DNA from: a virus
Taxonomy: Duplodnaviria; Heunggongvirae; Uroviricota; Caudoviricetes
Strand: one strand, 5' to 3'
Length of the DNA stretch: 12,574 bases
IMG/VR virus record: IMGVR_UViG_3300032144_000002
Location: 1-12,574 of that record
Shown here in pieces: positions 1-12,574 of the stretch (positions are counted from its first letter, which is position 1; each line of letters begins with the position of its first letter). A program made the translations under genes and the position numbers. The notes beneath the pieces are model-generated. The model saw only the letters and a program-made list of their open reading frames with translations, was not told where the DNA came from and did no database searches.

Positions 1-49
1 CCCACGGAGGGAAAATTTAAAGGGTCCTGATTCCATTCTGCGTCAACGT

Positions 50-54
50 GGAGG
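50..54 (+). promoter_or_regulatory. Shine-Dalgarno site for terL
   Basis: GGAGG 8 nt upstream of ATG 63. Confidence 0.7.
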
Positions 55-62
55 GATCCACG

Positions 63-1940
63 ATGGCTAAGGTGGAGCGAGTCACGCGACTGATCACGCG
101 TCAAGTCACGTACATCGGCAAGAAGCAGCTCGCTCAAGAAGCTGGGATGTCTGCGCACGAGGGGACGTCGTGGGAAACGATCATGAAGCCGCCGAAGGAC
201 TACGTCCCTGTCGCGCTGCCCGACGAGGGATGGGACTTCTCGTGCAAGGACTGGGAGGACCGCATCATGAACATGCGGCCTCTGCTGGTCACCAAGAAGT
301 ACCCGCTCAACAAGCACCTCGCTGACCGCGCCATTCGCGCCTTCGCCAAGCTCAAGCTCGCCGACGTAATCGGAACCCCTGCGCTCGACGAAGCTGGGGA
401 GCGCTGGTTCCGCGACATAGTGCGCGTCGTGTTCGGCTGCTACGACGAGGTCCGCAAGATTCGGCTCATCAAGGAGCTGTTCATTCTGGTGCCGAAGAAG
501 AACGCCAAGACTACATACGGCGCTCTGCTCATGCTGCTCGTTCTCATGTTCAACGAGCGACCGCGAGGTCAGGCGATCCTCGCCGCGCCAGAACGCAAAG
601 TCGCTGGCATCGCATTCGATGCGATCGCAGGCGCGATCCAATTGGACGAGGTGCTGCGCGCAAGGTTCATCGTCAAGGAGCAGCAGAAGATCATCATCGA
701 TCGGTGGAACGAGGCCGAACTGCTGGTGATGACGTTCGACCCGTCGGCGCTCACCGGACAATTGGTGTTTGCCGCGCTCATCGACGAGCTCCACGTGATG
801 ATGAAGCTGGCGAAGGCGGCTTCCGCCCTGCGGCAGATACGCGGCGGTATGCTGCCCTTTCCGGAGGCTATCCTCATCTTCATCACCACGCAATCCGAGG
901 AAGCTCCAGTCGGCGTGTTCAAGGCGGAGCTCAACAATGCTCGCGCTGTCCGCGACGGCCTCCGCCCGAAAGCCAAGGTGCTGCCGATCCTGTACGAGTT
1001 CCCGGAGAAGGTCCAGAAGGCCAAGCCAGAGGACGAGCTCAACTGGCGGAACCCGGCAATCTGGGATCGTGTGACACCCAATCTTGGGAAGTCCATTGAG
1101 ATCGGCGCTCTCACGGAGCTGTACGAGGAAGCTTCGGGCAAGGGCGATGCGGAGATGAAGTCGTGGGCGTCTCAGCATCTTAATGTAGAGATCGGCGTCG
1201 CGCTGCGTTCCGATTCATGGACCGGAGCATCGCTATGGGAAGCCGCCAAGTACGAGAAGGCAGCGTCGCTTGAATCGCTGCTCGCTGTTTGCGAGGTCGT
1301 CTGTGCGGGCGTAGACGGTGGCGGTCTCGATGACTTTCTCAGCCTGTCGATCGTCGGACGTGAAAGTGGAACCGGCAAGTGGCTCGTTTGGACTCGTTCA
1401 TGGCTAGCCAAGGTCGCCGCCGAAGCGCGGAAGTCCGAGACGCAACGACTTGAGGACTTTGTAAAGGCTGGCGATCTGGTGGTCGTCGATCAGATGGGTG
1501 AGGACGTCGATCAACTGGTCGAGTGTATCGCCAAGTGCGAGAAAGCTGGGCTGCTTGAGAAGATCGGGCTTGACCCATACGGAGTCGGTAGCATCGTTGA
1601 CGCGCTGCTCGCCGATGGTATTGGTGAGGACCGTATCGTAGGTATCTCGCAGGGATGGAGATTGGGCGGTGCGATCAAGACAGTAGAGCGCGAGCTTGCT
1701 ACTGGCAGGCTCGTGCATGGCGGGCAGCCGATCATGGCGTTCGCAGTGGGCAACGCCAAGACTGAGCCACGTGGAAACGCCACGCTGATTACCAAGGCTG
1801 CATCGGGAGTGGGCAAGATTGACCCGCTGATGGCGACGTTCAATGCGGTGCATTTGATCGCAGCGAACCCAGCTTCGAAGTCCAAGAAGTACCAGTTGAT
1901 TGTTCTTGGTGGAAAGAAGTCGAAACCGGCTGCGGCCTAA
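63..1940 (+). CDS. terL: Terminase large subunit (625 aa) with a 56-aa N-terminal extension
   Basis: Walker A-type LVPKKNAKTT, Walker B ALIDELH, coupling motif ITTQS, nuclease motifs GVDGGGLDD and KIDPLMA. Start placed at ATG 63 because GGAGG (50-54) lies 8 nt upstream; the track's GTG 48 overlaps that SD, and an in-frame TAA at 18-20 bounds the ORF. Confidence 0.95.
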   Translation: MAKVERVTRLITRQVTYIGKKQLAQEAGMSAHEGTSWETIMKPPKDYVPVALPDEGWDFSCKDWEDRIMNMRPLLVTKKYPLNKHLADRAIRAFAKLKLADVIGTPALDEAGERWFRDIVRVVFGCYDEVRKIRLIKELFILVPKKNAKTTYGALLMLLVLMFNERPRGQAILAAPERKVAGIAFDAIAGAIQLDEVLRARFIVKEQQKIIIDRWNEAELLVMTFDPSALTGQLVFAALIDELHVMMKLAKAASALRQIRGGMLPFPEAILIFITTQSEEAPVGVFKAELNNARAVRDGLRPKAKVLPILYEFPEKVQKAKPEDELNWRNPAIWDRVTPNLGKSIEIGALTELYEEASGKGDAEMKSWASQHLNVEIGVALRSDSWTGASLWEAAKYEKAASLESLLAVCEVVCAGVDGGGLDDFLSLSIVGRESGTGKWLVWTRSWLAKVAAEARKSETQRLEDFVKAGDLVVVDQMGEDVDQLVECIAKCEKAGLLEKIGLDPYGVGSIVDALLADGIGEDRIVGISQGWRLGGAIKTVERELATGRLVHGGQPIMAFAVGNAKTEPRGNATLITKAASGVGKIDPLMATFNAVHLIAANPASKSKKYQLIVLGGKKSKPAAA

Positions 1941-1954
1941 CTGGAGAGAAACAG

Positions 1955-1975
1955 GTGAACTGGAGAAACCGATGA
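1955..1975 (+). other. Six-codon leader mini-ORF (VNWRNR) overlapping the next start
   Basis: GGAG at 1943-1946, GTG 1955, TGA 1973-1975 overlapping ATG 1972-1974 (ATGA); the second SD (GGAG 1962-1965) lies inside the mini-ORF. Confidence 0.35.
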
Positions 1976-2160
1976 AAGTGAAGTTGCTGAAGAACAAGAT
2001 GGAGAATGGGAAGCTGAAGACCACGATCCGCATGTCCAAGAAGAAGGTCATCGGCTGGTTCGAAGGCACCATCCTCGAAGTCGGCGACCCGACTGGCGAG
2101 AAGCTGATCGCCAACGGCGAGGCGGAACTGTACGTCGAGCCGACCAAGGCGGGAGCGTAA
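1972..2160 (+). CDS. Small hypothetical phage protein (62 aa), probably virion/head-associated
   Basis: ATG 1972 with GGAG SD (track start at 1900 lies inside terL). MKVKLLK...GTILEVGDPTGEKLIANGEAE pattern resembles small head-module proteins; 18 of the first 20 codons end in G/C. Confidence 0.75.
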   Translation: MKVKLLKNKMENGKLKTTIRMSKKKVIGWFEGTILEVGDPTGEKLIANGEAELYVEPTKAGA

Positions 2161-2163
2161 CCC

Positions 2164-2598
2164 ATGAGCGCAACAGATACCTTCGAAAACAAGATCCTGT
2201 CGCTGTACTTCATGAACGCGGCGGCGGCCAACATCGGCGACGCCTCCGGTCTGCAGCCAGCGGCCACGGCCGGCAGCATCTACGTTTCGCTGCACGAAGC
2301 GGATCCGGGCGAAGACGGCGACCAGACGGACCAGGAAACGGACTACACCAACTACGCTCGCGTCGGCAAGGCCCGATCGGCGTCGGAGTGGAGTGTAGCA
2401 TCCGGCGTTGCCGACAACGACAACATCATCGAGTTCGCGACGTGCGGCGCGACCGGCGCGACGATCACGCACTTCGGCCTGGGATTCGCGGCGTCGAGCA
2501 CCGGCAGTCGAGACATCAACGGCACTGCGTCGCTGGTCGTTTCGAACGGCATCACGCCGCAGTTCGCCGCCGGCGCTCTCGACACGTCGATGGATTGA
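2164..2598 (+). CDS. Conserved phage structural protein (144 aa), Gp80-like family often auto-annotated as tail fibre protein
   Basis: MSxxDxFENxIL start, IYVSLHEADP, ETDYTNYAR, ITHFGL and ITPQFAAGALD motifs recalled for this family; GGGAG SD at 2151-2155; begins 3 nt after the previous stop. Confidence 0.78.
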   Translation: MSATDTFENKILSLYFMNAAAANIGDASGLQPAATAGSIYVSLHEADPGEDGDQTDQETDYTNYARVGKARSASEWSVASGVADNDNIIEFATCGATGATITHFGLGFAASSTGSRDINGTASLVVSNGITPQFAAGALDTSMD

Positions 2599-2603
2599 CG
2601 CCC

Positions 2604-3062
2604 ATGTCGCTGCTGCAGAAACAGGGATACGTAATCGCAGCCAAGGGAGAGCTCGTGGTCGTTGCGATCGCGAGCTTCTCTTGCACCCTGGAGTTCCAGG
2701 ATGCTATTGGCTTGTCCGCGATGATCCGTCGCGAAGCTCGCTATGCGAAGGCGAGCTCCGGCGATCGTTCGCGTCTTCACTCGTCGATCGGCATACTCAG
2801 CGATGCTGCCGCGCAGAAGTGGAGGCAGGCGCGGTGGCGCAAGCTGCCCGAACAGCTGAAGCTGAAGAAACTGTTTGTTCGCCATGCCGGAGCGATGGTG
2901 ACCATCAACATCGGAAGGCAGGGAATGACCATGCCCTACAACGCGGCATTCGAAATCGCGCAGCAGCTGCGAGTCTACGGCAAGCTCGCTCGCAACCATG
3001 CGAATGAGAAAGCCGGCTGGCAGCGTATCAATGAACTCGCGACACCGGTAACGGAGCACTGA
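2604..3062 (+). CDS. Hypothetical protein (152 aa) built from two ~46-aa homologous halves
   Basis: ATG 2604, 5 nt after the previous TGA (track start at 2388 overlaps the upstream gene); ungapped self-alignment at offset 81 residues. Confidence 0.72.
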   Translation: MSLLQKQGYVIAAKGELVVVAIASFSCTLEFQDAIGLSAMIRREARYAKASSGDRSRLHSSIGILSDAAAQKWRQARWRKLPEQLKLKKLFVRHAGAMVTINIGRQGMTMPYNAAFEIAQQLRVYGKLARNHANEKAGWQRINELATPVTEH

Positions 3063-3065
3063 GCC

Positions 3066-3470
3066 ATGTGTGAGCTACTCGTCCGCGTCGTCGATAAGGT
3101 CAACGCGAAAGACCCGGACAAGGATGCACGGTGCTTGAAGCGCGGCGATGTCGTGGTGATCTGTGAAGATGGCCACCAGTGGAGCAAGCGGGAACTGGCC
3201 AACCCGAGCTGGCGCGTCATCAAGCTGCCTGGTACGAATCGTCGCGAGGTCCAGCATCTTATGTACCAGGAGGTGGGTGCAGACCGCCGAGTGGGCATGA
3301 GCCGCGCCTTCAAGGTGGACGTAGACCACATTTCCATTCGCTCGCAGGTCGAGAGTGCCAAGGAGCCGGTGGCCCTGCAAAAGGCCGCTCTCGACGCTGT
3401 GGTGGTGCTCAAGCCCGGAATCACTGATCCGCGCCTCGACCCGGCCACGCGGGCCAAGTCGAAGGGGTAG
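3066..3470 (+). CDS. Hypothetical phage protein (134 aa), MCELLVRVVDK...RGDVVVI...W...E...P.WRVIKLP type
   Basis: GGAG SD at 3053-3056, 3-nt gap after the upstream stop, fills the operon exactly; resembles hypothetical proteins I recall preceding beta-helix fibre genes. Confidence 0.78.
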   Translation: MCELLVRVVDKVNAKDPDKDARCLKRGDVVVICEDGHQWSKRELANPSWRVIKLPGTNRREVQHLMYQEVGADRRVGMSRAFKVDVDHISIRSQVESAKEPVALQKAALDAVVVLKPGITDPRLDPATRAKSKG

Positions 3471-3474
3471 GGGC

Positions 3475-5685
3475 GTGGCCACGACATACACGGTGGGGAC
3501 TGGGGGCGGACGAGACTACTCCACGCCGCAGGCTGCGATTGACGATATCCCGTCTACGCCCACCGGCGGATACATCGTGGATGTGTACAACGATTCGGAG
3601 TACACAGCCGGGTTTGTAATTGATGGATTCACCACGAGCTCGACGGACTTCCTAACAGTCCGAGCTGCCGATGGTGAATCATTCATGGACCATGCTGGCG
3701 CGGCCAGCAATCCACAGCGCTACGACCAGACGAAGGGGGTGGGATTCGACATCCCTTATGCGGTGTTCGGATACGGGGCGAACCTGCAAGGGAATCTCCC
3801 ATACGTCACCATCGAGCGCATGCAGTTCAAGTGCTCCGAAGGACTGGCAACGAGTGTGCTGGTCTTTGAGTCGTACAACATCGACACCTCGATTGTGCGG
3901 AACTGCATCTTCGAGAAGTCCTATAACGACGGGTTTGGGTCAGGCATTGGGTTTGCGCGTGGCGGCGTCATCCAGAATTGTCTGTTCTATTACACGCATG
4001 CGGCTGAAACTATTGGTTTCAATTGCCAGTCCTCTCCTCCTAGGTTTGTCAACTGCGCGTTCCTTGCGCCTAGTGGGTGCTCTGAGGCGGCGGTTGTCTC
4101 CGATGGTGACAACGGCGTCGAACTGATCAACGTAGCGATATTCGGCTACTCGGCTGTTTCCTCTGGCGCCAACGTCAATGCTGACAACTGCGCGACCAAC
4201 CTTGCGAGCGGGTTCACGGGGGATAACAACGAGTACAGCAAGGTCTTCGCTGACGAGTACGAGGCGAGTGATGATTTCCGGTTGAAGTCCGGCAATAGCA
4301 TGCTGTTCGGCCAGGACACCAGTGCATACACCGGCGGTCTGGACATTATCGGCCAGCCACAACCAGGAAGCCCGCCGATCTACGTAGGGCACTGGGCGTT
4401 TCAGGGCGGCGGGCCAAGCGGTGAGATGAACGGTAGCGCTTCTTTTTCGATGTCTCCAACGAGCACTCTGTCTGGGGATGGCGCTCTTACCGGAACGGCT
4501 GCGTTAGCGATTGCCGGTGTTGGCACAATCAACGGACGCGCGCCGATGGCGGGCGCTGCTACGCTCAATATCGCTGGAACTTCTGCGTTGTCAGCTAGAG
4601 GCGCGTTGATCGGTAGCGCTTCATTGACCGTCACGCCAACTGGCAGTCTAACTGGCGACGGCGCGCTCATCGGCAATGCTTCTATTACTGTCACGCCAGT
4701 TGGTTCGCTCTCTGGTCGCGGCGCACTGACAGGGCTGGCGTCTATCACGTTGACGCCAACTGGCGCGCTTGCTGGCGGTGGCGCTGTTACTGGCACTGCG
4801 AATATCACCATCGTTGCCTCAGCGACGCTGGCTGGTCGCGGGGCCTTGGCAGGCGCCGCTTCGGTTACGATCACGCCATCGGGGGCGCTTATTGGTGACG
4901 GCGCTCTTATAGGAGACGCAGATCTAGCGCTGTCACCAGAAGGTGATCTCAGCAACGCTGACGCTGGAAGCATGGCCGGTTCTGCATCGCTGCTACTGAC
5001 TCCGTCTGGTACGCTTGTCGGCGACGGCGCGCTACTCGGGTTGAGCACGATTACCATCACGCCGTCTGGCGCTCTTTCTGGTCGCGGCGCCTTGACCGGG
5101 TTGGCTGCCATCACCGTGGCACCAGTCGGTACGCTCAATGGTAGAGGACCGCTGTCTGGGTCCGCAGGATTGACCATCACCGGAACCGCAGCATTGGGCG
5201 GTCGCGGGCGGTTGCTTGGTAGTGCTTCGCTCACCATCACTGGTATCGGTACGCTCACCTACACAAGCGAAGACTATATGATCGGCGCAGCGTCGATCAC
5301 AATAGCTGGTAGCGGAACGATGTCTGGTCGCGGACGTCTGCTTGGCACAGCAGCGCTCGCAGTGACTGGTATCGGTAGCATCAACGGTAGGACGCCGATA
5401 TCCGGGTCTGCGTCTTTCGCCATTACGTCTGTGTCGCTACTGCGCGGGCGCGGCGCGCTGATCGGCAGTGCTTCGCTTCTTATGACGCCCACTGGTAATC
5501 TGACCGAGAAGATTCCTGGTGAGGCCAGCGGTAACGCGTACATTACGTGGGCCGCGACTGGCGCGATGATGATTGAAACCGAAACTGAAGCCACTATCAT
5601 TCACATCATCGGCGTCGTCAATTCTAATAGAGCGCTGCTTGGAACTGTGGCTACGAATATTTCCCTACTTGGAGTGCGAAGCTAA
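3475..5685 (+). CDS. Putative virion fibre/spike (736 aa): N-terminal pectin-lyase-like beta-helix, choice-of-anchor-Q-like motif, 20-aa repeat stalk
   Basis: GTG 3475 preceded by a G-rich SD-like stretch, 4 nt after TAG 3470. TYTVGTGGGRDYSTPQAAIDDI resembles the start of pectinesterase/pectate-lyase-like beta-helices; repeated xxRNCIF/IQNCLFY/FVNCAFL rungs; DFRLKSGNS...DIIGQPQP...VGHWAFQ matches the DxxLxxxSP...DxxGxxR...DIGAYE closing motif; then 18-19 repeats. Confidence 0.85.
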   Translation: MATTYTVGTGGGRDYSTPQAAIDDIPSTPTGGYIVDVYNDSEYTAGFVIDGFTTSSTDFLTVRAADGESFMDHAGAASNPQRYDQTKGVGFDIPYAVFGYGANLQGNLPYVTIERMQFKCSEGLATSVLVFESYNIDTSIVRNCIFEKSYNDGFGSGIGFARGGVIQNCLFYYTHAAETIGFNCQSSPPRFVNCAFLAPSGCSEAAVVSDGDNGVELINVAIFGYSAVSSGANVNADNCATNLASGFTGDNNEYSKVFADEYEASDDFRLKSGNSMLFGQDTSAYTGGLDIIGQPQPGSPPIYVGHWAFQGGGPSGEMNGSASFSMSPTSTLSGDGALTGTAALAIAGVGTINGRAPMAGAATLNIAGTSALSARGALIGSASLTVTPTGSLTGDGALIGNASITVTPVGSLSGRGALTGLASITLTPTGALAGGGAVTGTANITIVASATLAGRGALAGAASVTITPSGALIGDGALIGDADLALSPEGDLSNADAGSMAGSASLLLTPSGTLVGDGALLGLSTITITPSGALSGRGALTGLAAITVAPVGTLNGRGPLSGSAGLTITGTAALGGRGRLLGSASLTITGIGTLTYTSEDYMIGAASITIAGSGTMSGRGRLLGTAALAVTGIGSINGRTPISGSASFAITSVSLLRGRGALIGSASLLMTPTGNLTEKIPGEASGNAYITWAATGAMMIETETEATIIHIIGVVNSNRALLGTVATNISLLGVRS
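4432..5571 (+). repeat. Tandem 20-aa (60-nt) protein repeats, consensus GSASLTITPxGxLxGRGALx; 18 full units plus 1 degenerate
   Basis: Read directly from the translation: 15 units of 20 aa and 3 units of 22 aa (units 9, 14, 18) span 4432-5529; degenerate unit GNAYITWAATGAMM follows. Repeats are diverged at DNA level. Confidence 0.95.
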
Positions 5686-6107
5686 TGGCGCGCCAGCAAG
5701 ACATCAAGCTGTTCAGCGGTAATGACTTCGTTCTGAGAGCGACGATCATCGACGCTGATACTGGTCTAGCGTACGATCTTTCAGACATCACCGGGCTGGT
5801 TTGGGCGATGGCGCCGAAGGCGTGCCCGCCACCAGCGTCGTCAAGGTACGGTCGCTGCACCTGCAGAACGGATCCTAACTGTGGAAGGATCTTCGGCGAT
5901 GCCATCGTTACCAAGAACCTCGACGACGGTGTTCTGGTCACTGATCCGACGAATGGGAAGGCGGAGGTTACGATCAACAGCGATGATCTCGAACCTCTAT
6001 GCGGAAAGTATTACTACGAGATGCAGGTTGTTTCCAGTACAGGTAAGCGATCTACTGTTCTGTTCGGGTTTGTTTCGGTGCAAGAGAATTTGATCGCGGC
6101 AGCATAG
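5685..6107 (+). CDS. Ig-like / BppU-N-terminal-like adaptor protein (140 aa) with Cys-rich insertion
   Basis: TAATG overlap with the fibre stop; GNDFVLRATI.D..G..YDL, GVLVTDPTNGKAEVTI, GKYYYEMQV..STG...TVLFGFVSV motifs typical of BppU-N/DUF2479-like domains (recalled). Confidence 0.72.
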   Translation: MARQQDIKLFSGNDFVLRATIIDADTGLAYDLSDITGLVWAMAPKACPPPASSRYGRCTCRTDPNCGRIFGDAIVTKNLDDGVLVTDPTNGKAEVTINSDDLEPLCGKYYYEMQVVSSTGKRSTVLFGFVSVQENLIAAA

Positions 6108-6123
6108 CCGTTAAGGAGTACAT

Positions 6124-6786
6124 GTGAGCGTGTTGAAGAGAGCGTATGGTGTCGTCGAACTCAAAGAGTTCGATGACAACAAGCGTGAGTTCGAGGGAAT
6201 CGCTACCACGATTTCTACGGATCGCTACGGCGATATCGTGGAGTCGAGCGGTGCTGTGTTCGAGCTCCCGCTTCCATTGCTGTGGCAGCACAATGCCTCG
6301 GCACCTGTGGGCCACGTCACTTCGGCGACGCCCACGAAGAAGCACATCAAGGTGAAGGGCAACCTCGCAAAGACCGAGGTTGCTGGCAATCTGAAGGACC
6401 GACTCGATGACGCATGGCAGAGCCTCAAGCTCGGTCTTGTGCGGCACCTCTCGATCGGGTTCAATCCGATCAAGTACGAGCCGGTCCCGGAAAGCGACAA
6501 GTACGGCCTCCACTTCCTGGAGTGGGAATGGTTGGAGCTGTCGTTCGTGACTATCCCTGCCAATGCTGGCGCGGGCATCACGGCAATCAAGTCTCTCAAT
6601 GCTCTGAACGCGGAGCAGCTGAGGGTCTTGCGCGAGTACGACCGAAACCTCATGCGAGCCGCGTCAGGCAAGAGCGGAGGCAACGGCGCAGTACGACTCG
6701 ACGAGTACTTCAAGCCCGGCGTCACGGGTGTCGACAAGTCCAAGTCGGGGCAGCGTAAACGCGCTGTGTCTCTCAAGGTCAACTGA
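6124..6786 (+). CDS. HK97-family prohead (maturation) protease (220 aa)
   Basis: FEGIATT, DRYGDIV, PLLWQH (catalytic His), LSIGF (catalytic Ser), ELSFVTIPAN motifs; AAGGAG SD at 6113-6118, GTG start. Confidence 0.95.
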   Translation: MSVLKRAYGVVELKEFDDNKREFEGIATTISTDRYGDIVESSGAVFELPLPLLWQHNASAPVGHVTSATPTKKHIKVKGNLAKTEVAGNLKDRLDDAWQSLKLGLVRHLSIGFNPIKYEPVPESDKYGLHFLEWEWLELSFVTIPANAGAGITAIKSLNALNAEQLRVLREYDRNLMRAASGKSGGNGAVRLDEYFKPGVTGVDKSKSGQRKRAVSLKVN

Positions 6787-6805
6787 GTACAACTGGAGAA
6801 GAAAG

Positions 6806-8215
6806 ATGAAGCTGAGTGAACAGATCAAGGCTCTGCAGGCTGCTCGCGCTGCGAAGGCCGCCCGTCTGCAGGCGATCCTGGCGAAGGCTGCCGAGGAGAC
6901 CCGCTCCCTGGAAGCCGACGAGGCCGAAGAGTTCGATGCCACCGACACCGAGATCAAGACGATCGACGCCGATCTCGTGCGCCTGAAGCGTGCCGAATCC
7001 ATCCTGGTGGAAGAGGCCGAGGAAGTCGACGAGGACGAGGTGGTCACTCGTCGCGTGACGAGCCAGAAGAAGAGCAAGGAGACGAACCGCGGACCGACGA
7101 TCATCATCGCCGATCCGAAGAACAAGGACGAGAAGTTCAAGGGCCAGAACTTCACGCGGCTCTGCATCGCACAGGCTGCGGCGCACATCAAGAACCACGC
7201 GTTCACGCCGGCACAGTACGCCGAGCATCGCTGGGGCGCGAAGGAAGCCGCCGGCGTCATCATGATCCTGCGCGCCGGCGTGCCGTCGGGCGGGTCGGAG
7301 AGCGGCCAGTGGGGCGCGGAGCTCGCGGCTGTGGACTCGCGCTACCGCGGTGACTTCATCGAGTTCCTGTACTCGCGGACGGTGTACGACCGTCTGGCGC
7401 TGCGCGAAGTCCCGGACAACGTGCTGATCAAGGGCCAGGATGGCGCGGCGACGGGATACTGGGTCGGTGAGAAGAAGGCCATCCCGGTGTCGTCGATGGA
7501 CTTCCTGGATGTCGAGCTCCGCGCGCTGAAGGTCGGCGCGATCGCGGCCATCTCGAACGAGCTGATCCTGCGTTCTGATCCCTCAGCGGAGGCGCTGGTG
7601 CGTGACGGTCTCGTGAACGCGAGCGCGCAGCGTGTCGATACCACGTTCATCTCGGCCAACGCGGCAGTGTCCAATGTGTCCCCGGCCGGTATCCTGAATG
7701 GCGTCAGCGCCATCGCAGCGACCGGCGAGGACGCTCAGTCCCTGTTCAACGACATCGGCCTGCTGTACGCGCCGTTCATCACGGCCAAGAACGCCACGGG
7801 GCTGACTTACGTGATGCACCCGGGTCTGGCCAAGAGCATCTCGCTGATGCGCAATGCCCTGAGCCAGAAGGAGTTCCCGGAGCTGACCGCGAACGGCGGC
7901 ATGCTGGAAGGCGACCCGGTCGTGACCGGCGAGAACGTGGCCACCGACGACCTGATCCTGCTGAAGCCGAGCGACATCTATCGCATCGGCGACCGCGGGT
8001 TCGAGGTGTCGGTCTCGAAGGAGGCCACCATCGAGATGGACTCGGCGCCGACCGGTGACGGCCACACGCCGACGGCTGCGTCCGCGAACCTGCTCTCGAT
8101 GTTCCAGAACGAGATGACCGCCTTCAAGGTGGTGCGTCCGATCTCGTTCGCGAAGCGTCGGTCAAGCGCGGTGCAGTTCATCGGCAACGCGACCTACGGC
8201 GGTTCGGCGACCTGA
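6806..8215 (+). CDS. HK97-fold major capsid protein (469 aa) with N-terminal delta (scaffold) domain
   Basis: ATG 6806 with GGAG SD (6795-6798); coiled-coil N-terminus MKLSEQIKALQ...; GAATGYWVGEKKAIP, ISNELILRS, SMFQNEMTAFKV..PISFAKRR motifs; very strong codon bias (20/20 G/C-ending codons at 7742-7801). Confidence 0.97.
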   Translation: MKLSEQIKALQAARAAKAARLQAILAKAAEETRSLEADEAEEFDATDTEIKTIDADLVRLKRAESILVEEAEEVDEDEVVTRRVTSQKKSKETNRGPTIIIADPKNKDEKFKGQNFTRLCIAQAAAHIKNHAFTPAQYAEHRWGAKEAAGVIMILRAGVPSGGSESGQWGAELAAVDSRYRGDFIEFLYSRTVYDRLALREVPDNVLIKGQDGAATGYWVGEKKAIPVSSMDFLDVELRALKVGAIAAISNELILRSDPSAEALVRDGLVNASAQRVDTTFISANAAVSNVSPAGILNGVSAIAATGEDAQSLFNDIGLLYAPFITAKNATGLTYVMHPGLAKSISLMRNALSQKEFPELTANGGMLEGDPVVTGENVATDDLILLKPSDIYRIGDRGFEVSVSKEATIEMDSAPTGDGHTPTAASANLLSMFQNEMTAFKVVRPISFAKRRSSAVQFIGNATYGGSAT

Positions 8216-8231
8216 TAAGTCGCAGATGGAA

Positions 8232-8264
8232 AGCCGGGCACTGTAATGGTGCCCGGCTACTTTC
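8232..8264 (+). terminator. Hairpin after the capsid gene; probable weak/leaky intrinsic terminator or RNA-stabilising stem
   Basis: Perfect 10-bp stem AGCCGGGCAC (8232-8241) / GTGCCCGGCT (8249-8258), 7-nt loop TGTAATG, followed only by ACTTTC (short, interrupted U tract). Confidence 0.6.
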
Positions 8265-8285
8265 GCAGCAAAGAGCAGGTGCGCT

Positions 8286-8576
8286 ATGAAAGAACTCAAA
8301 GTGCTGAAGCCGTTTCCATATGGCGGCAAGATGCGAAACAAGAACGAGCGAATCATGGCGTCTAACAAGCACGCTGCGGTTCTCTCGTTGACTGGCAAGG
8401 CCAAAGAGCTTCCCAAGGAACGGAAGGCCAAAGAGTACAAGACCGCAGTGATGACACCGGAACCAGAAGGCTCTGGGCGGGCAGCGCCACGATCGAACAG
8501 ACAGCAGCGCCGTGCTGAGAGAAGGGCGCAGCAGAAGCCGGGCTACCAGCGCTCGGATATGGCAGCTGAATCGTGA
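8286..8576 (+). CDS. Small basic hypothetical protein (96 aa) between capsid and portal genes
   Basis: ATG 8286; stop overlaps the portal start (GTGA). N-terminal KELKVLKPFPY...AAVLSLTGKA pattern like small head-module proteins; Lys/Arg-rich C-terminus. Confidence 0.8.
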   Translation: MKELKVLKPFPYGGKMRNKNERIMASNKHAAVLSLTGKAKELPKERKAKEYKTAVMTPEPEGSGRAAPRSNRQQRRAERRAQQKPGYQRSDMAAES

Positions 8577-10201
8577 AACGCAAGAACTTCATCAGCCGAG
8601 CGTTCCAGCGGCGCGTGGTGCTGCCGCTCGCCAAGAAGTTGCTTGAAGCATATCCAGTCGACGGTAGGGGGAGCGGCTGGCGCAGAATTCTCGAGACCTA
8701 CACCGGGGCGTGGCAGCAGGATGTTGAAGTCAACTACGCGGTAGTCGACGCCTATTGGGCGGACTTCTCTTGCAAGACTCTGATCGCAGGCGACATCTCA
8801 AAAATGCCGCCGTATGTGATGGAGTATGACGAGGCCCAGCAGATCTGGAAGCGGACAAAGAAGCGACCGGTACTGCGTAAGCCGAACCACTACCAGACCA
8901 CCATCGAGTTCATTTTCGCGTGGATCATCAGTCAGCTTCGCCACGGCAATACCTACGTGCTGAAGGTTCGCGACGACAAGAGGTTCATCGTCGCGCTTCA
9001 CGTTCTCGATCCGTGCCGCGTGATGCCACTGATTACCAAGGACGGCGACGTCTACTATCGTCTCGACAGCGAAAAGCTGGCCGGGCTCGGCGATGGGCGC
9101 CAGATAGTGGTGCCAGCTAGCGAGATCATTCACGATCGGATGTACTGCTTGTTCCATCATCTCGTCGGTGTGTCGCCAGTATTCGCGTGCGGCATACAGG
9201 CGATGCAAGGCTCGGCGATCATCAATACGTCGTCAGCGTTCTTCACCAATCGCGGAATGCCCGCCGGTATCCTCACTGCACCGGGACACATTAGCGATGA
9301 CACTGCCAATCGTCTGAAGACTTATTTCGACGACAACTTCACCGGGCAGAACGCCGGCAAGGTCGCAGTGCTTGGTGATGATCTGAAATTCGAATCGCTG
9401 GGAACAAGCGCCACGGACTCGCAGTTGATCGAACAGCTGAAAATGACCGGCGAAATGATCGCTGCATGCTACCATGTGCCGGGCTACAAGATCGGCGTAG
9501 GACAGATGCCGACGGTCAACAATCTCGCTGCGCTCAACCAGCAGTATTACGAGCAGTGCTTGCAGTATCTGGTGGAGAAGATGGAGCAGAGGCTCGACGA
9601 AGGACTTGAGCTCAATACCGATATCGAGCAGTGCTGGTTTGACACGTCGGTGCTTATGCGCATGGATCCACAGACTCGTTCGACGGTACAGGGCCAGAAA
9701 GTCAAGGATGGTATTCTTGCGCCGGATGAAGCGCGGCGTGAGGATGATCTACCGCCTGTTCCTGGCGGGGGAATCCCGTACATGCAGCAGCAGAACTACT
9801 CGCTGCAGGATCTGGCGCTGCGTTCGCAGCGTGACGCGGCCAAGGGCGACGACACGAATGTCCAGTCGCAGGCTATGAACGGCGCGCAAGTGAAGGCGAT
9901 GCAGGAGATCATCGCGGCAGTCGCGAGCAAACAGCTACCGCCAGACGCTGCGAAGGCCGCGCTACTGGCTGCGTTCCCTCTGCTTGACAAGGAAGAAGTT
10001 GACGCGATGATTGATCCTCTCGCGAACTTCACTCCGGCTCCGGTCGAGGCACCAGAGTCAGCTGAAGAGCCCGCTAATGAGGCCGAGGATGAGGATGCGG
10101 ATGAGGATGAGGCTGAGGATGAGGATGAAGAGCCTGATGAAGAATCTGAAGAAAGCCTCAAGGCAATGGTTAGCAGCAGAATGATGGAGGTGGTCCCGTG
10201 A
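8573..10201 (+). CDS. HK97-family portal protein (542 aa) with C-terminal helical and acidic extension
   Basis: GAWQQ, LIAGDISKMP, RKPNHYQT..EF..AW...LRHGNTY, IIHDR, PAGILTAPG, EQLKMT...YHVPGYKIG, LAPDEARR..DLPP..GG..YMQQQNYSL motifs. Confidence 0.95.
   Translation: MKRKNFISRAFQRRVVLPLAKKLLEAYPVDGRGSGWRRILETYTGAWQQDVEVNYAVVDAYWADFSCKTLIAGDISKMPPYVMEYDEAQQIWKRTKKRPVLRKPNHYQTTIEFIFAWIISQLRHGNTYVLKVRDDKRFIVALHVLDPCRVMPLITKDGDVYYRLDSEKLAGLGDGRQIVVPASEIIHDRMYCLFHHLVGVSPVFACGIQAMQGSAIINTSSAFFTNRGMPAGILTAPGHISDDTANRLKTYFDDNFTGQNAGKVAVLGDDLKFESLGTSATDSQLIEQLKMTGEMIAACYHVPGYKIGVGQMPTVNNLAALNQQYYEQCLQYLVEKMEQRLDEGLELNTDIEQCWFDTSVLMRMDPQTRSTVQGQKVKDGILAPDEARREDDLPPVPGGGIPYMQQQNYSLQDLALRSQRDAAKGDDTNVQSQAMNGAQVKAMQEIIAAVASKQLPPDAAKAALLAAFPLLDKEEVDAMIDPLANFTPAPVEAPESAEEPANEAEDEDADEDEAEDEDEEPDEESEESLKAMVSSRMMEVVP
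10079..10153 (+). repeat. Acidic low-complexity tract in the portal tail
   Basis: 20 of 25 residues are D/E; near-perfect 18-nt duplication GAGGC(C/T)GAGGATGAGGAT at 10079-10096 and 10109-10126. Confidence 0.85.
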
Positions 10202-11763
10202 GCGTTAACATGCGCCAAGCAATCGACATCATTTCTGGCGAGCTCGCCAAAGCGGTGCTGCGGCTCAAAGCATTGTTCGATGAGCGACTGTCCAGCGTTG
10301 AGAAGCGTGTTCAGACGCTTGCTGAGATCGAGGACAGACGTGCCGCCAATGCCGGCACTGCAGCTCTCAAGATAGAAGTCGACTCTGAAGAGATGCAGAG
10401 ACTTCTAAGAGAGTGTACCCAGATTGTCGAGCAGAAGAACGCTGAATTCATGCGCGAACTTTCTGAGAAGTTGCGCGAGGTGGAAAATGAGGCCGCTGCG
10501 CGGGCCGCTGCGCAGAGCGAGCTGATCGCTGAGCTGCGAGCGCTTACTGCTGAGAGGACCGCCGCTCCTACCATGGATGCTATCGTACGACAGATTGTCG
10601 TAGGTATGGCTTCCGACGAAGGACGTCGTCTTGCTGAAGTTCGAGCCATGTGCGATCAGATCATGGCGCCGCACTTGCGGCAGCAATCTGAGCATCTTAC
10701 AACGGTAGCGCGTAGAGTCGACGAGCTCGCCGCCGCCATACCAACCGTGCCAAGTATGGCTGAGATCGCCGCCAGTGCTGCCGCACTTGTGCCAGTACCG
10801 ACCAATGGAAAAGACGGCGTTGACGGGCGAGACGGGCGAGACGGTAAGGACGGTAAGGACGGTGTTGATGGCGTCAACGGCAAGGACGGCGCTGATGGGC
10901 TCAATGGTAAGGACGGAGCCGCCGGGTTGAACGGCCGAGACGGCGTCGATGGCGCGGCTGGTAAGGATGGTGTTGATGGCCAGAGCGTTGACATCAAGAC
11001 AGTGCGTGCTATGATCGATGAATCCGTTGCCGAAGCTGTGTCTAAGTTGCCGGCACCGGCAGATGGCAAGGATGGCGCTGATGGTAAAGACGGAGCTGCT
11101 GGGCTCAACGGTAAGGACGGCGTCGATGGGCGCGATGGAAAGGACGGTGTCAATGGTGCCGATGGCAAGGACGGAACGTCGTTCACGCTGCGTGACGCAG
11201 AAGAAGTAATAGCCAAGGCGGTAGCCGCGCTGCCGATTCCCAGCGCGGCCGATGTCGCTGCGCTGATGAAGCCTGCGATCGCAGAGTGGGCGCTTGACTT
11301 CGAGCGTCGGGCACAGGGTCTGTTGCACGACGTCATGTCCAGGATACCGAAGGACGGCAAGGACGGCAAGGACGGCAAGGACGGTAGGGACGGTAAGGAC
11401 GGTATTGAAGTCAAGATGCTGCGCCCGGTCCTGCTCGAAGACGGAGTAACTCTGCGGTACGAATTCAAAGCTGGCGACGAAACCATTACGCATGATATCG
11501 CGTTGCCGATACCGGAATGGGTCGGCCACTACAAAGCTGGTGACACCTATCCGCGCGCTAAGATGGTCACGTACGGCGGATCCGTGTTCATGGCGATGCG
11601 AGAGACTTCGTCTAAACCGGAGACCGACGATTCGTGGAAGTTGGTCGTCAAGCGCGGTCGTGAGGGTAAACAGGGTATGAAAGGCGACAAGGGCGACAAG
11701 GGTGAGAAGGGCGAGCGCGGCGACAAGGGCGCACCTCCGTTCTCGCCGATCGCTGGGAGGTAG
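10198..11763 (+). CDS. Coiled-coil + collagen-like + CBM5/12-like portal-adjacent protein (521 aa)
   Basis: GGAGGT SD (10186-10191), GTGA overlap with the portal stop; ~180-aa helical N-terminus; four G-X-Y blocks; C-terminal W.G.Y..G..Y....VTYGGS.F.A...T...P....W.LVVKRG module. Confidence 0.88.
   Translation: MSVNMRQAIDIISGELAKAVLRLKALFDERLSSVEKRVQTLAEIEDRRAANAGTAALKIEVDSEEMQRLLRECTQIVEQKNAEFMRELSEKLREVENEAAARAAAQSELIAELRALTAERTAAPTMDAIVRQIVVGMASDEGRRLAEVRAMCDQIMAPHLRQQSEHLTTVARRVDELAAAIPTVPSMAEIAASAAALVPVPTNGKDGVDGRDGRDGKDGKDGVDGVNGKDGADGLNGKDGAAGLNGRDGVDGAAGKDGVDGQSVDIKTVRAMIDESVAEAVSKLPAPADGKDGADGKDGAAGLNGKDGVDGRDGKDGVNGADGKDGTSFTLRDAEEVIAKAVAALPIPSAADVAALMKPAIAEWALDFERRAQGLLHDVMSRIPKDGKDGKDGKDGRDGKDGIEVKMLRPVLLEDGVTLRYEFKAGDETITHDIALPIPEWVGHYKAGDTYPRAKMVTYGGSVFMAMRETSSKPETDDSWKLVVKRGREGKQGMKGDKGDKGEKGERGDKGAPPFSPIAGR
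10807..10986 (+). repeat. Collagen-like block 1, 20 G-X-Y triplets
   Basis: GKD GVD GRD GRD GKD ... GVD GQS read from the translation. Confidence 0.95.
11065..11181 (+). repeat. Collagen-like block 2, 13 G-X-Y triplets
   Basis: GKD GAD GKD GAA GLN ... GKD GTS. Confidence 0.95.
11356..11409 (+). repeat. Collagen-like block 3, 6 triplets, overlapping a perfect 9-bp tandem repeat
   Basis: GKD GKD GKD GRD GKD GIE; AAGGACGGC three times at 11350-11376. Confidence 0.9.
11656..11736 (+). repeat. Collagen-like block 4, 9 triplets of G-D/E-K type
   Basis: GRE GKQ GMK GDK GDK GEK GER GDK GAP. Confidence 0.9.
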
Positions 11764-11768
11764 ATAAC

Positions 11769-12083
11769 ATGGGACTCGTAACGCTTGAAGCCGCAAAGCG
11801 CCACCTGAAGCCGCCTGGAACGGTTGATGACACGCGCATTACTGACATCATTGCGCAAGCCACGAGCATCGTTCTGGAATACATCAAGAAGCCGGAAGGT
11901 GAATACCAGAACGCGGAAGGCGCGCCGATCGCTCAGCTCGTGCCGCCTAACGTACAGGCTGCATGCCTGCTCGTAATTGGCTCGCTGTATGACAACGCTG
12001 ACGGTCAGAACAAAGACAAGGATCCATTGTCACCGGCTGTCAAGAGCCTGCTGCACGCGAGAAGGATGCCGTCAATTGCCTAA
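11769..12083 (+). CDS. HK97 gp6-like head-tail connector (adaptor) protein (104 aa)
   Basis: LVTLEAAKRHLK...DD..I...I..A...V..YI, VPPNVQAACLLVIGSLYDN, PAVKSLL motifs; GGGAGG SD 8 nt upstream. Confidence 0.9.
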   Translation: MGLVTLEAAKRHLKPPGTVDDTRITDIIAQATSIVLEYIKKPEGEYQNAEGAPIAQLVPPNVQAACLLVIGSLYDNADGQNKDKDPLSPAVKSLLHARRMPSIA

Positions 12084-12574
12084 GATCGGCGATAACACGA
12101 ATCCTGTATGGGCCGGTGCCACAGTGACGTGCATCGCATCAGGTCCGTCATTGACGCAGGCGGATGTCGATTTCGTGCGCGGCAAGTCTAGGGTCATCGC
12201 CGTCAATAGGGAGTACGAGACTGCTCCTTGGGCGGATGTCTGCTACGCCGCTGACTATGATTTCTGGCGCGTGTATCTTGCTGAAGGTCTTCGTGACGTA
12301 TTCAAAGGGCAGCTGTGGACAATGAGCGAGCAGGCGAGAAAGGAGTTTGGCATCAGCTGCATCGGTCGCTGTAACGGCGACGGATATTCAATCATACCGA
12401 ACACCATCACCACTGGTGGAAACAGCGGCTATCAAGCGGTGCATCTGGCGGCCTATTGGGGCGCATCGCGAATAGTCATGTTGGGGTATGACATGCAGAA
12501 AACCGGCGGCAAGGAACACCACTATGGAAAGCACAAGGGACAACTTCGCAATGGCCGCAGCTACCCGTTCTGGA
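12076..12574 (+). CDS. Maf/DUF115 (MptE-like) or sialyltransferase-fold glycosyltransferase-like protein, 3'-truncated by the window
   Basis: Not in the ORF track. Frame +1 translated by hand: (M)PKIGDNTNPVWAGATVTCIASGPSLTQADVDFVRGKSRVIAVNREYETAPWADVCYAADYDFW...TGGNSGYQAVHLAAYWGASRIVMLGYDMQKTGGKEHHYGKH...; probable TTG start at 12076 with AAGGA (12062-12066), overlapping the connector stop by 8 nt. Start position uncertain. Confidence 0.8.
   Translation, partial: MPKIGDNTNPVWAGATVTCIASGPSLTQADVDFVRGKSRVIAVNREYETAPWADVCYAADYDFWRVYLAEGLRDVFKGQLWTMSEQARKEFGISCIGRCNGDGYSIIPNTITTGGNSGYQAVHLAAYWGASRIVMLGYDMQKTGGKEHHYGKHKGQLRNGRSYPFW

Follow-up and report, generated by a model that had tools for sequence, protein, structure and literature searches.

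What is encoded by the open reading frame that runs over the stop codon of a head–tail adaptor gene in a tailed phage, which sugar would its product transfer, and onto which acceptor? The frame lies at the end of a 12,574-nucleotide stretch of viral DNA (hereafter the window, meaning the whole stretch analyzed), which corresponds to bases 1–12574 of the 76,574-bp IMG/VR virus record IMGVR_UViG_3300032144_000002 (Caudoviricetes), rated complete by CheckV. A first-pass annotation, made from the letters of the window, had singled out this frame as a glycosyltransferase-like gene that might attach sugars to virion proteins. The reading that we prefer, with a probability of roughly 0.45, is that of a soluble, late-expressed transferase of cytidine monophosphate (CMP)-activated ulosonic acids that would O-glycosylate a virion protein.

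Reading frame and gene product

On the plus strand the frame is open from base 11977 to the end of the window and, in the full record, up to a stop codon at 12700–12702. Neither an early stop nor a frameshift beyond the window, either of which the first-pass annotation had named as a possible objection, is present: the frame is intact to base 12702. Read from the sequence, the TTG at 12076 is the most plausible gene start; it overlaps by 8 nt, up to and including the TAA codon (12081–12083), the gene of the Ad1 adaptor, and such an overlap of start and stop, together with the upstream AGAAGGA (Table 1), is typical of translational coupling of the transferase to the Ad1 gene. The product (P0002) has 208 amino acids. 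An identical 208-aa protein, from the same 76,574-bp contig, is present in a public protein collection, which means that the gene was found by public gene callers, and 1,931 homologs (E ≤ 1e-3) were retrieved from the protein collection. Thus, the frame that had been suspected to be a gene because of its motifs is a real one. All of the motifs quoted for it are found in the translation: ASGPSL (residues 21–26), VIAVN (40–44), ADVCYAAD (53–60), GGNSGYQAVHLA (114–125), IVMLGYD (133–139) and HHYGKH (148–153). No membrane segment was found in the transferase, the maximum hydropathy over 19 residues being 0.84.

Fold and remote homology

The AlphaFold2 model of the product (predicted local distance difference test, pLDDT, of 96) resembles most closely the flagellin glycosyltransferase Maf of Magnetospirillum magneticum (5MU5; score 16.7, 2.7 Å, 178 residues), followed by CstII of Campylobacter jejuni (1RO8; 12.1, 177 residues), Cst-I (2P2V; 12.0), SteA (9HMZ; 10.9), the MptE kinase (8SD5; 10.8, 140 residues), thiamin pyrophosphokinase (3K94; 9.0) and human ST8SiaIII (8.7). 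It is therefore Maf, and not an enzyme other than a glycosyltransferase, as had been considered beforehand, that ranks top. The parallel with the Maf/DUF115 family drawn in the first-pass annotation is borne out by profile comparison as well. Aligned by hhalign to a profile of 75 Maf central domains, the phage family scores 97% (E 9.5e-11), and 82% with a profile of 31 Maf sequences; the product is homologous to the central catalytic domain of Maf, residues ~265–511 of 5MU5. The search for the larger profile was seeded with a canonical Maf of 697 aa (P0138; PF01973 at 91.8 bits; homolog of 5MU5 at E 2.6e-85). This Maf is encoded in a Kiloniellaceae metagenome-assembled genome, or MAG (G003; L166:790-2883), in which a prophage harbors the minimal phage-type gene as well, so that both forms coexist in one cell. 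The Maf alignments concur in equating ASGPS with GSGPS of Maf and LGYD139 with GVD415, and His148 is aligned with the first His of the Maf segment KRHH(S), which stands nine residues past the Asp in both proteins. In Maf, Asp415, Glu324 and a conserved Ser in the vicinity of the PTV/NSG segment are reported to be essential (bioRxiv 10.1101/2020.06.03.131540).

A second relative emerged in WaaZ of E. coli K-12, named Kdo III transferase by NCBI (Kdo, 3-deoxy-D-manno-oct-2-ulosonic acid), which itself matches PF01973 at 29.6 bits. The hhalign comparison of the phage family with a WaaZ profile gives 86% (E 4.9e-6) over 181 columns, residues 15–206 being aligned with residues 22–259. As for CstII, the parallel with family GT42 that had been proposed for this frame stands as far as the fold is concerned, which is matched, but does not extend to a GT42 Pfam match at E ≤ 1; nor did the family profile search reach the CstII chains in the PDB at E ≤ 10. 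The corresponding motifs, as we take them to be, are GNGPSL for ASGPSL, xxCN (FRCN in CstII) for IAVN around Asn44, TSG for the NSG of residues 116–118, GID for GYD, and a downstream His, presumably His188, which would act as the catalytic general base after the lid of CstII. Matches to designed ankyrin repeat proteins (DARPins), obtained when the PDB was searched with the single sequence and with a 50-sequence profile, were rejected as spurious, since they stem from the stretch HLAAYWG. As judged from these alignments, the phage family is a separate, minimal clade of the DUF115 superfamily, with a predicted catalytic core common to Maf, CstII and WaaZ.

Conserved residues

Conservation was scored in 50 homologs, to which PmgO of P1, ORF010 and orf7 of the Pseudomonas phages PAJU2 and D3, respectively, and gp174 of the Caulobacter phage CcrBL9 were added. 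In the loop following the first strand, G23 and S25 are invariant among the 50 homologs and P24 and L26 are at least 90% conserved; the loop is kept in PmgO, ORF010 and orf7, and CcrBL9 gp174 has T at position 25 and V at position 26. In the second glycine-containing segment N116 and G118 are invariant and S117 is conserved at 94%; S117 and G118 are kept in the four added members, and CcrBL9 gp174 has D at 116. Moreover, G23, N44, D60, W64, S117, G118, G137, Y138, D139, H148 and H153 are all retained in the members from P1, PAJU2, D3 and CcrBL9. A candidate active site can be proposed on this basis, which would be formed by the GPS loop, Asn44, Asp60, Ser117, Asp139 and His148, with His148 as the candidate general base.

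Table 1. Transferase gene, its conserved elements and its gene neighborhood (base 1 is the first base of the window and of the record)
Feature	Coordinates	Strand	Remarks
Transferase gene, first 166 of 208 codons	12076..12574	+	Ends at base 12702, beyond the window; product P0002
Shine-Dalgarno-like AGAAGGA	12060..12066	+	Nine bases 5' of TTG 12076; read from the sequence
G23-P24-S25-L26, predicted nucleotide-binding loop after strand 1	12142..12153	+	GxGPS motif of Maf, CstII and MptE
Asn44, end of strand 2 (VIAVN)	12205..12207	+	Invariant; aligns with AVN motif of WaaZ
Asp60 (YAAD), candidate active-site acid	12253..12255	+	Invariant; aligns with LTD motif of WaaZ
N116-S117-G118, start of helix facing the putative donor site	12421..12429	+	Within PF01973 match; aligns with PTVxN segment of Maf
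G137-Y138-D139	12484..12492	+	Invariant; D139 aligns with Asp415 of Magnetospirillum Maf
H148...H153, nine and fourteen residues after Asp139	12517..12534	+	H148 invariant, H153 96% conserved
Large terminase	48-1940
Fibre cassette, including Gp80-like protein and 776-aa repeat protein	Between terminase and prohead protease
Prohead protease	6124-6786		Overlaps capsid gene
HK97-type capsid protein	6728-8215
Portal	8573-10201
Collagen-like virion protein	10198..11763	+	Collagen repeats, PF01391 E 3.5e-20; possible acceptor
Head–tail adaptor Ad1 (gp6-like)	11769..12083	+	PF05135 E 1.4e-6; phrog_40 E 1.6e-14
FkbM methyltransferase	12663-13439		Beyond the window
Methyltransf_24 enzyme	13421-14191		Beyond the window
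GTa, phrog_1962 glycosyltransferase	14188-14853		Beyond the window
GT2	14787-15608		Beyond the window
GTb, second phrog_1962 glycosyltransferase	15605-16357		Beyond the window

Family membership and distribution

The family is already catalogued, in PHROGs and in RefSeq re-annotations, and it includes long-known genes of P1, P7 and D3. The product matches phrog_4603 (E 3.7e-37, 128.6 bits, residues 20–193 against profile positions 1–161 of 178), which PHROGs labels 'alpha-2,3-sialyltransferase', likely on account of the resemblance to CstII. In Pfam it matches PF01973 (MptE-like/Maf_flag10/DUF115) at 19.7 bits (E 7.9e-4) over residues 106–142 only, and at 15.6 bits in a scan of the whole phage genome; many homologs carry a precomputed match to the same entry, and by sequence the transferase appears to be a remote member of the PF01973 superfamily lying outside Pfam's own cut-off. 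No NCBIfam match was found for the product. What the present analysis adds to these catalogs is the residue map relating the family to Maf and WaaZ, a survey of NeuB in host genomes, the neighbor statistics, and the view of the gene as the element that persists while the rest of the cassette varies.

The family counts at least 562 relatives on IMG/VR contigs and 128 confirmed ones in bacterial genomes, chiefly on MAG contigs or chromosomes; nearly all of these bacterial matches come from phyla bearing lipopolysaccharide (LPS). Among 300 sampled Pseudomonadota genomes the family occurs in five, in prophages (~2%). One Pseudomonadota genome contains tandem copies (G118:C12:11669-12795; E 5e-68 and 3e-10), like pmgO and pmgP of P1. 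By tblastn the transferase finds P1, P7, D3, PAJU2 and phages of Caulobacter and Brevundimonas, the family being present in the jumbo Caulobacter (Bertelyvirus) phages, and every one of the 69 cultured-phage records with a homolog and a stated bacterial host infects Proteobacteria. The protein is 190–250 aa long in 143 of 149 loci, the remaining six having long open reading frames of 473–686 aa.

Sugar donor

The donors of Maf, CstII and WaaZ are without exception CMP-activated 2-keto-3-deoxy acid sugars, and a donor of this kind is therefore the most likely one for the phage enzyme, too. The search of the phage for a NeuB-type synthase (PF03102) and for a CMP-sugar synthetase (PF02348, CTP_transf_3) found neither, and the donor would have to come from the host because the phage makes no such sugar itself. 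A NeuB homolog is encoded by five of ten prophage-bearing host genomes and is missing from the other five, including a complete Dokdonella chromosome; a nonulosonate donor can therefore not be general for the family, and the sialic, pseudaminic or legionaminic acid suggested in the first-pass annotation is not favored as a general answer. On the other hand, WaaZ uses CMP-Kdo, which is present in every LPS-bearing Gram-negative host, and we infer that no other CMP-sugar is shared by all known hosts of the phage family, which makes CMP-Kdo the more general candidate. The host would thus supply CMP-Kdo or, where it makes either of them, CMP-pseudaminic or CMP-legionaminic acid. That all cultured hosts are Proteobacteria fits Kdo, but may simply reflect the phage lineage. 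In E. coli, Maf enzymes have been reported to draw on the CMP-Kdo pool and to transfer Kdo (bioRxiv 10.1101/2020.06.03.131540).

Gene neighborhood in the phage and in related loci

The transferase gene opens a six-gene cassette, with two sugar-type methyltransferases and three glycosyltransferase-like enzymes, between the adaptor and the head closure gene (Table 1). The expectation that more glycosyltransferase or methyltransferase genes would follow downstream has thus come true, with five such genes ahead of those of the neck and tail; after GTb come head closure (Phage_HCP), then tail completion gp17, tail assembly protein T and the tape measure. A genome-wide scan found no PmgP-type paralog in this phage. 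The 776-aa protein of the fibre cassette (3355-5685) consists of an N-terminal domain and ~18–20 copies of a Ser/Thr/Gly-rich repeat of ~20 residues (GxGALxGxASLTITPxGxL).

In 80 related IMG/VR loci the transferase gene lies 2–3 kb 3' of the portal gene and ahead of head closure, a 164-aa protein and gp17. Its upstream neighbor, analyzed in 144 loci, is most often an HK97 capsid gene (64), a collagen-like gene (18) or a gp6-like adaptor gene (16). Downstream, methyltransferases (~30 of 134), glycosyltransferases, a second DUF115 paralog (7 of 134) and two frequent unannotated families are found. The latter two, the commonest downstream partners, may be further enzymes or a partner in acceptor recognition. 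The first, 300 aa long and found in 17 loci, has no match in Pfam or PHROGs, and the second, of 278 aa and found in 16 loci, corresponds to phrog_6804; neither occurs in this phage, and examples are found at L092:8467-9369, at L118:1676-2512 and in gp175 and gp176 of CcrBL9 (L170:6614-8295). Long open reading frames matching both protease and capsid were seen in several related loci.

The transferase stands alone between adaptor and head closure in one locus (L036) and is directly followed by head closure in another (L005). The five extra enzymes of this phage are therefore an add-on, as relatives carry the transferase without them, and its occurrence on its own fits direct transfer to protein. 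The gene itself is optional, being missing from many related head-neck modules, and so are its enzyme partners. Rare natural fusions join the transferase core to a methyltransferase of the TylF/Methyltransf_24 type (P0130, 374 aa), to a collagen-like protein (P0134, 467 aa) or to a dual-specificity phosphatase (P0136, 384 aa), and a PmgQ-like glycosyltransferase also occurs as fusion partner. Of the cassette genes, that of the transferase comes first and is conserved most widely; it is the persistent core around which the rest varies.

Acceptor and alternative readings

According to the reading that we prefer, the gene would be expressed with the late structural operon, in translational coupling with the head–tail adaptor gene, and its product would transfer a CMP-activated 2-keto-3-deoxy acid sugar onto a virion protein, by analogy with Maf and flagellin; this would take place in the cytoplasm, either ahead of assembly or in the course of it. 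The capsid, the collagen-like protein and a neck protein are the candidate acceptors, on which the transferase may start or cap a glycan. A virion-protein acceptor is suggested by the constancy with which the gene is placed next to capsid, collagen-like and adaptor genes in phages that differ widely, by the nature of the closest relative, Maf, a protein O-glycosyltransferase, by the ability of the gene to stand alone, and by the precedent of cassettes in the structural operons of mycobacteriophages. It is our leading guess, with host LPS as the main rival. The more detailed proposal, namely that a stripped-down Maf puts Kdo from host CMP-Kdo on Ser/Thr of capsid, collagen-like or neck proteins, and that the glycan is extended and methylated by the five downstream enzymes, we regard as improbable. 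DNA was also considered as a target and is unlikely, the gene lying among head-neck genes; host flagellin is unlikely too, as the acceptor-binding domains of Maf are missing.

Several observations weigh against transfer to a virion protein by a Maf-like enzyme. The essential Glu324 of Maf (ELEN) is placed differently by different alignments: in one hhalign comparison it falls in a gap beside residue 79 (Gln here; Glu in 30 and Leu in 12 of the 50 homologs), and the run with the 31-sequence profile pairs the invariant Asp60 with Asp318 of Maf. The flanking acceptor-binding domains of Maf have no counterpart in the phage protein, and the median pI of the phage family (9.2) is that of WaaZ (9.0) rather than that of the Maf core (6.2). 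Two of the three characterized relatives, CstII and WaaZ, act on LPS or lipooligosaccharide (LOS), not on proteins. The product has no Pfam match to GT42 / CST-I at E ≤ 1, and its match to PF01973 is short and below the gathering threshold (19.7 vs 34.6 bits). Moreover, the Ser/Thr-rich repeat fibre, which the first-pass annotation had listed among the acceptors, co-occurs with the transferase in none of 80 related loci. Finally, biochemical or proteomic work on any member of the phage family was not found in the literature.

Some of these points lead directly to the alternative of the same chemistry being aimed at the host envelope. Together with the other enzymes of the cassette, the transferase would then act late in infection on a surface glycan, such as the LPS inner core, and the remodeled surface of infected cells and debris could prevent adsorption by phages, whether progeny or superinfecting ones. 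Apart from WaaZ, a Kdo III transferase acting on LPS, and CstII, a sialyltransferase acting on LOS, being among the closest characterized relatives, this would agree with the AVN...TD motifs that the N-terminal half has in common with WaaZ, with the basic character found in both families, with the faint similarity of GTa, GTb and P1 PmgQ to GT8 enzymes of the LPS-core type, and with a family distribution restricted to hosts with LPS; LPS is also the receptor of P1 and D3. However, the gene is embedded in a head-neck operon, and it has stayed beside capsid or adaptor genes in phages and hosts that differ widely, which points to a partner encoded by the phage. The top match, both in structure and by profile, is the protein glycosyltransferase Maf, and the family also occurs in the Bertelyvirus phages of Caulobacter, which use the flagellum or pili. 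The transferase has no membrane segment, whereas the known LPS modifiers of phages are membrane proteins encoded in conversion or moron regions. We consider an envelope acceptor unlikely, albeit a contender to be taken seriously.

Far less likely than either a virion or an LPS acceptor are the two remaining readings, kinase chemistry and a purely structural role. A nucleotide-dependent kinase or pyrophosphokinase like MptE or thiamin pyrophosphokinase, with a small molecule or a protein as substrate, is brought to mind by the name (MptE-like) of the only Pfam family matched, by the rare fusion to a dual-specificity phosphatase (P0136) and by phosphatase genes nearby in P1. Yet the homology to the Maf and WaaZ profiles spans most of the protein, MptE did not come out as the best match in structure and sequence, and the neighbors and fusion partners are glycosyltransferases and sugar-type methyltransferases, with no genes for pterin, folate or thiamin among them; we hold this chemistry to be very unlikely. 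Least probable of all is that the protein, despite its enzyme fold, is not catalytic and serves in morphogenesis or as a virion-associated protein, for instance as a factor in head completion or a minor component of the neck. Such a role would suit the historical names of PmgO of P1 ('putative morphogenetic function') and of ORF010 of PAJU2 ('structural protein') and the fixed position between head and neck genes, but not the nucleotide-loop and active-site-type character of the invariant residues, the dispensability of P1 pmgO for plaque formation or the lack of the gene in many related head-neck modules.

To our knowledge, only a few mycobacteriophages and some giant viruses are established cases of virion glycosylation. 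The transferase family is common in head-neck modules of phages of Gram-negative bacteria, including the model phages P1 and D3. If their particles are glycosylated, there would be consequences for phage stability, for immune recognition in therapy and for adsorption, and a minimal protein-glycosylating enzyme would become available that could be useful in glyco-engineering; if LPS is edited instead, a new kind of late-acting receptor modification would be at hand. Should Kdo indeed be transferred to protein, this would be the first natural glycosylation of a protein with Kdo and, for phages of Gram-negative bacteria, the first system of virion glycosylation.

Comparison with known systems

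Maf is a soluble cytoplasmic enzyme that acts directly on Ser/Thr of its protein substrate, and the phage protein is soluble as well. Common to both families are the GxGPS loop, the G-x-D-[ML] strand with the essential Asp, and the His nine residues further on. Maf proteins, on the other hand, have 600–700 aa, with helical domains N- and C-terminal to the catalytic one, whereas the phage protein is reduced to a core of ~200 residues; and whereas Maf genes are found in a flagellar context, the phage gene lies among head-neck genes, so that, by context, its acceptor cannot be flagellin. With its AVN...AAD motifs, the N-terminal half of the phage protein looks closer to WaaZ and CstII than to Maf. 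The motifs AVN, TD, GxD and a C-terminal N-x-[ST] are common to WaaZ and the phage family, and both are basic, but WaaZ, at 283 aa, exceeds the phage protein in length, contains a large insertion, lacks the His148/His153 pair and is a chromosomally encoded enzyme of the waa cluster acting on the LPS core of E. coli and Salmonella. The lid that separates the GxD strand from the His is far longer in CstII, where a C-terminal segment for membrane association is also present which the phage protein does not have. As for MptE (8SD5, the archaeal 6-hydroxymethyl-7,8-dihydropterin pyrophosphokinase), the GxGPS loop and a 'PD' strand are common to it and Maf, but its match to the phage protein is weaker and shorter (140 residues), and the neighbors and fusion partners of the phage gene are sugar enzymes, with no pterin or folate context.

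The gene context has its closest analog in the mycobacteriophages Corndog, Che8 and Myrna, which reportedly encode glycosyltransferases and an O-methyltransferase among their structural genes and for which virion glycosylation is said to have been shown. As in this phage, glycosyltransferase and methyltransferase genes lie inside the late structural operon, the enzymes are soluble and the module is an optional accessory; in the mycobacteriophages the glycans reportedly sit on capsid or tail proteins, which is the outcome proposed for this phage, too. We know of no Maf- or CstII-like enzyme in the mycobacteriophage cassettes, nor of Kdo in their hosts.

Within the family itself, PmgO of P1, HdmB of P7, orf7 of D3 and ORF010 of PAJU2 are true members with 29–35% identity in which the key residues are kept. 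In P1, pmgO is expressed with pmgP and pmgQ behind the late promoter LPpmgL, and pmgQ is homologous to both GTa and GTb of this phage; the P1 set is thus made up of the PmgP paralog and PmgQ, whereas this phage has a larger one, with two methyltransferases, a GT2 and two PmgQ-like glycosyltransferases. All three P1 genes were found to be non-essential by CRISPRi (PMC10695390), and dispensability of pmgO is to be expected of an accessory modifier. In D3 the transferase gene lies between the capsid and adaptor genes, and a methyltransferase is found in the neck region. The frame of D3 orf7 (NC_002484, L003; 5762-6409) is open from 5762, whereas the annotated start is at 5951; its GPSL loop (VCLASGPSL) lies 5' of that start, beneath the annotated 'orf6.5', and to judge from the sequence orf7 appears to have been annotated too short. 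In PAJU2 (AP009624, L169), ORF010 (7780–8349) carries one of only three 'structural protein' labels in the first 14 kb, the other two belonging to the capsid and to what is likely the major tail protein; should virion proteomics be the basis of this label, the enzyme may be carried in the particle. Protease and capsid form a single 'prohead protease fused capsid protein' in PAJU2 (2032-4035), and the order of its genes, from this fused protein through portal, collagen-like protein and adaptor to the transferase, is the same as in the present phage. Indeed, the P1, D3 and PAJU2 members all occupy a position in the late operon or head module, as does the transferase gene described here.

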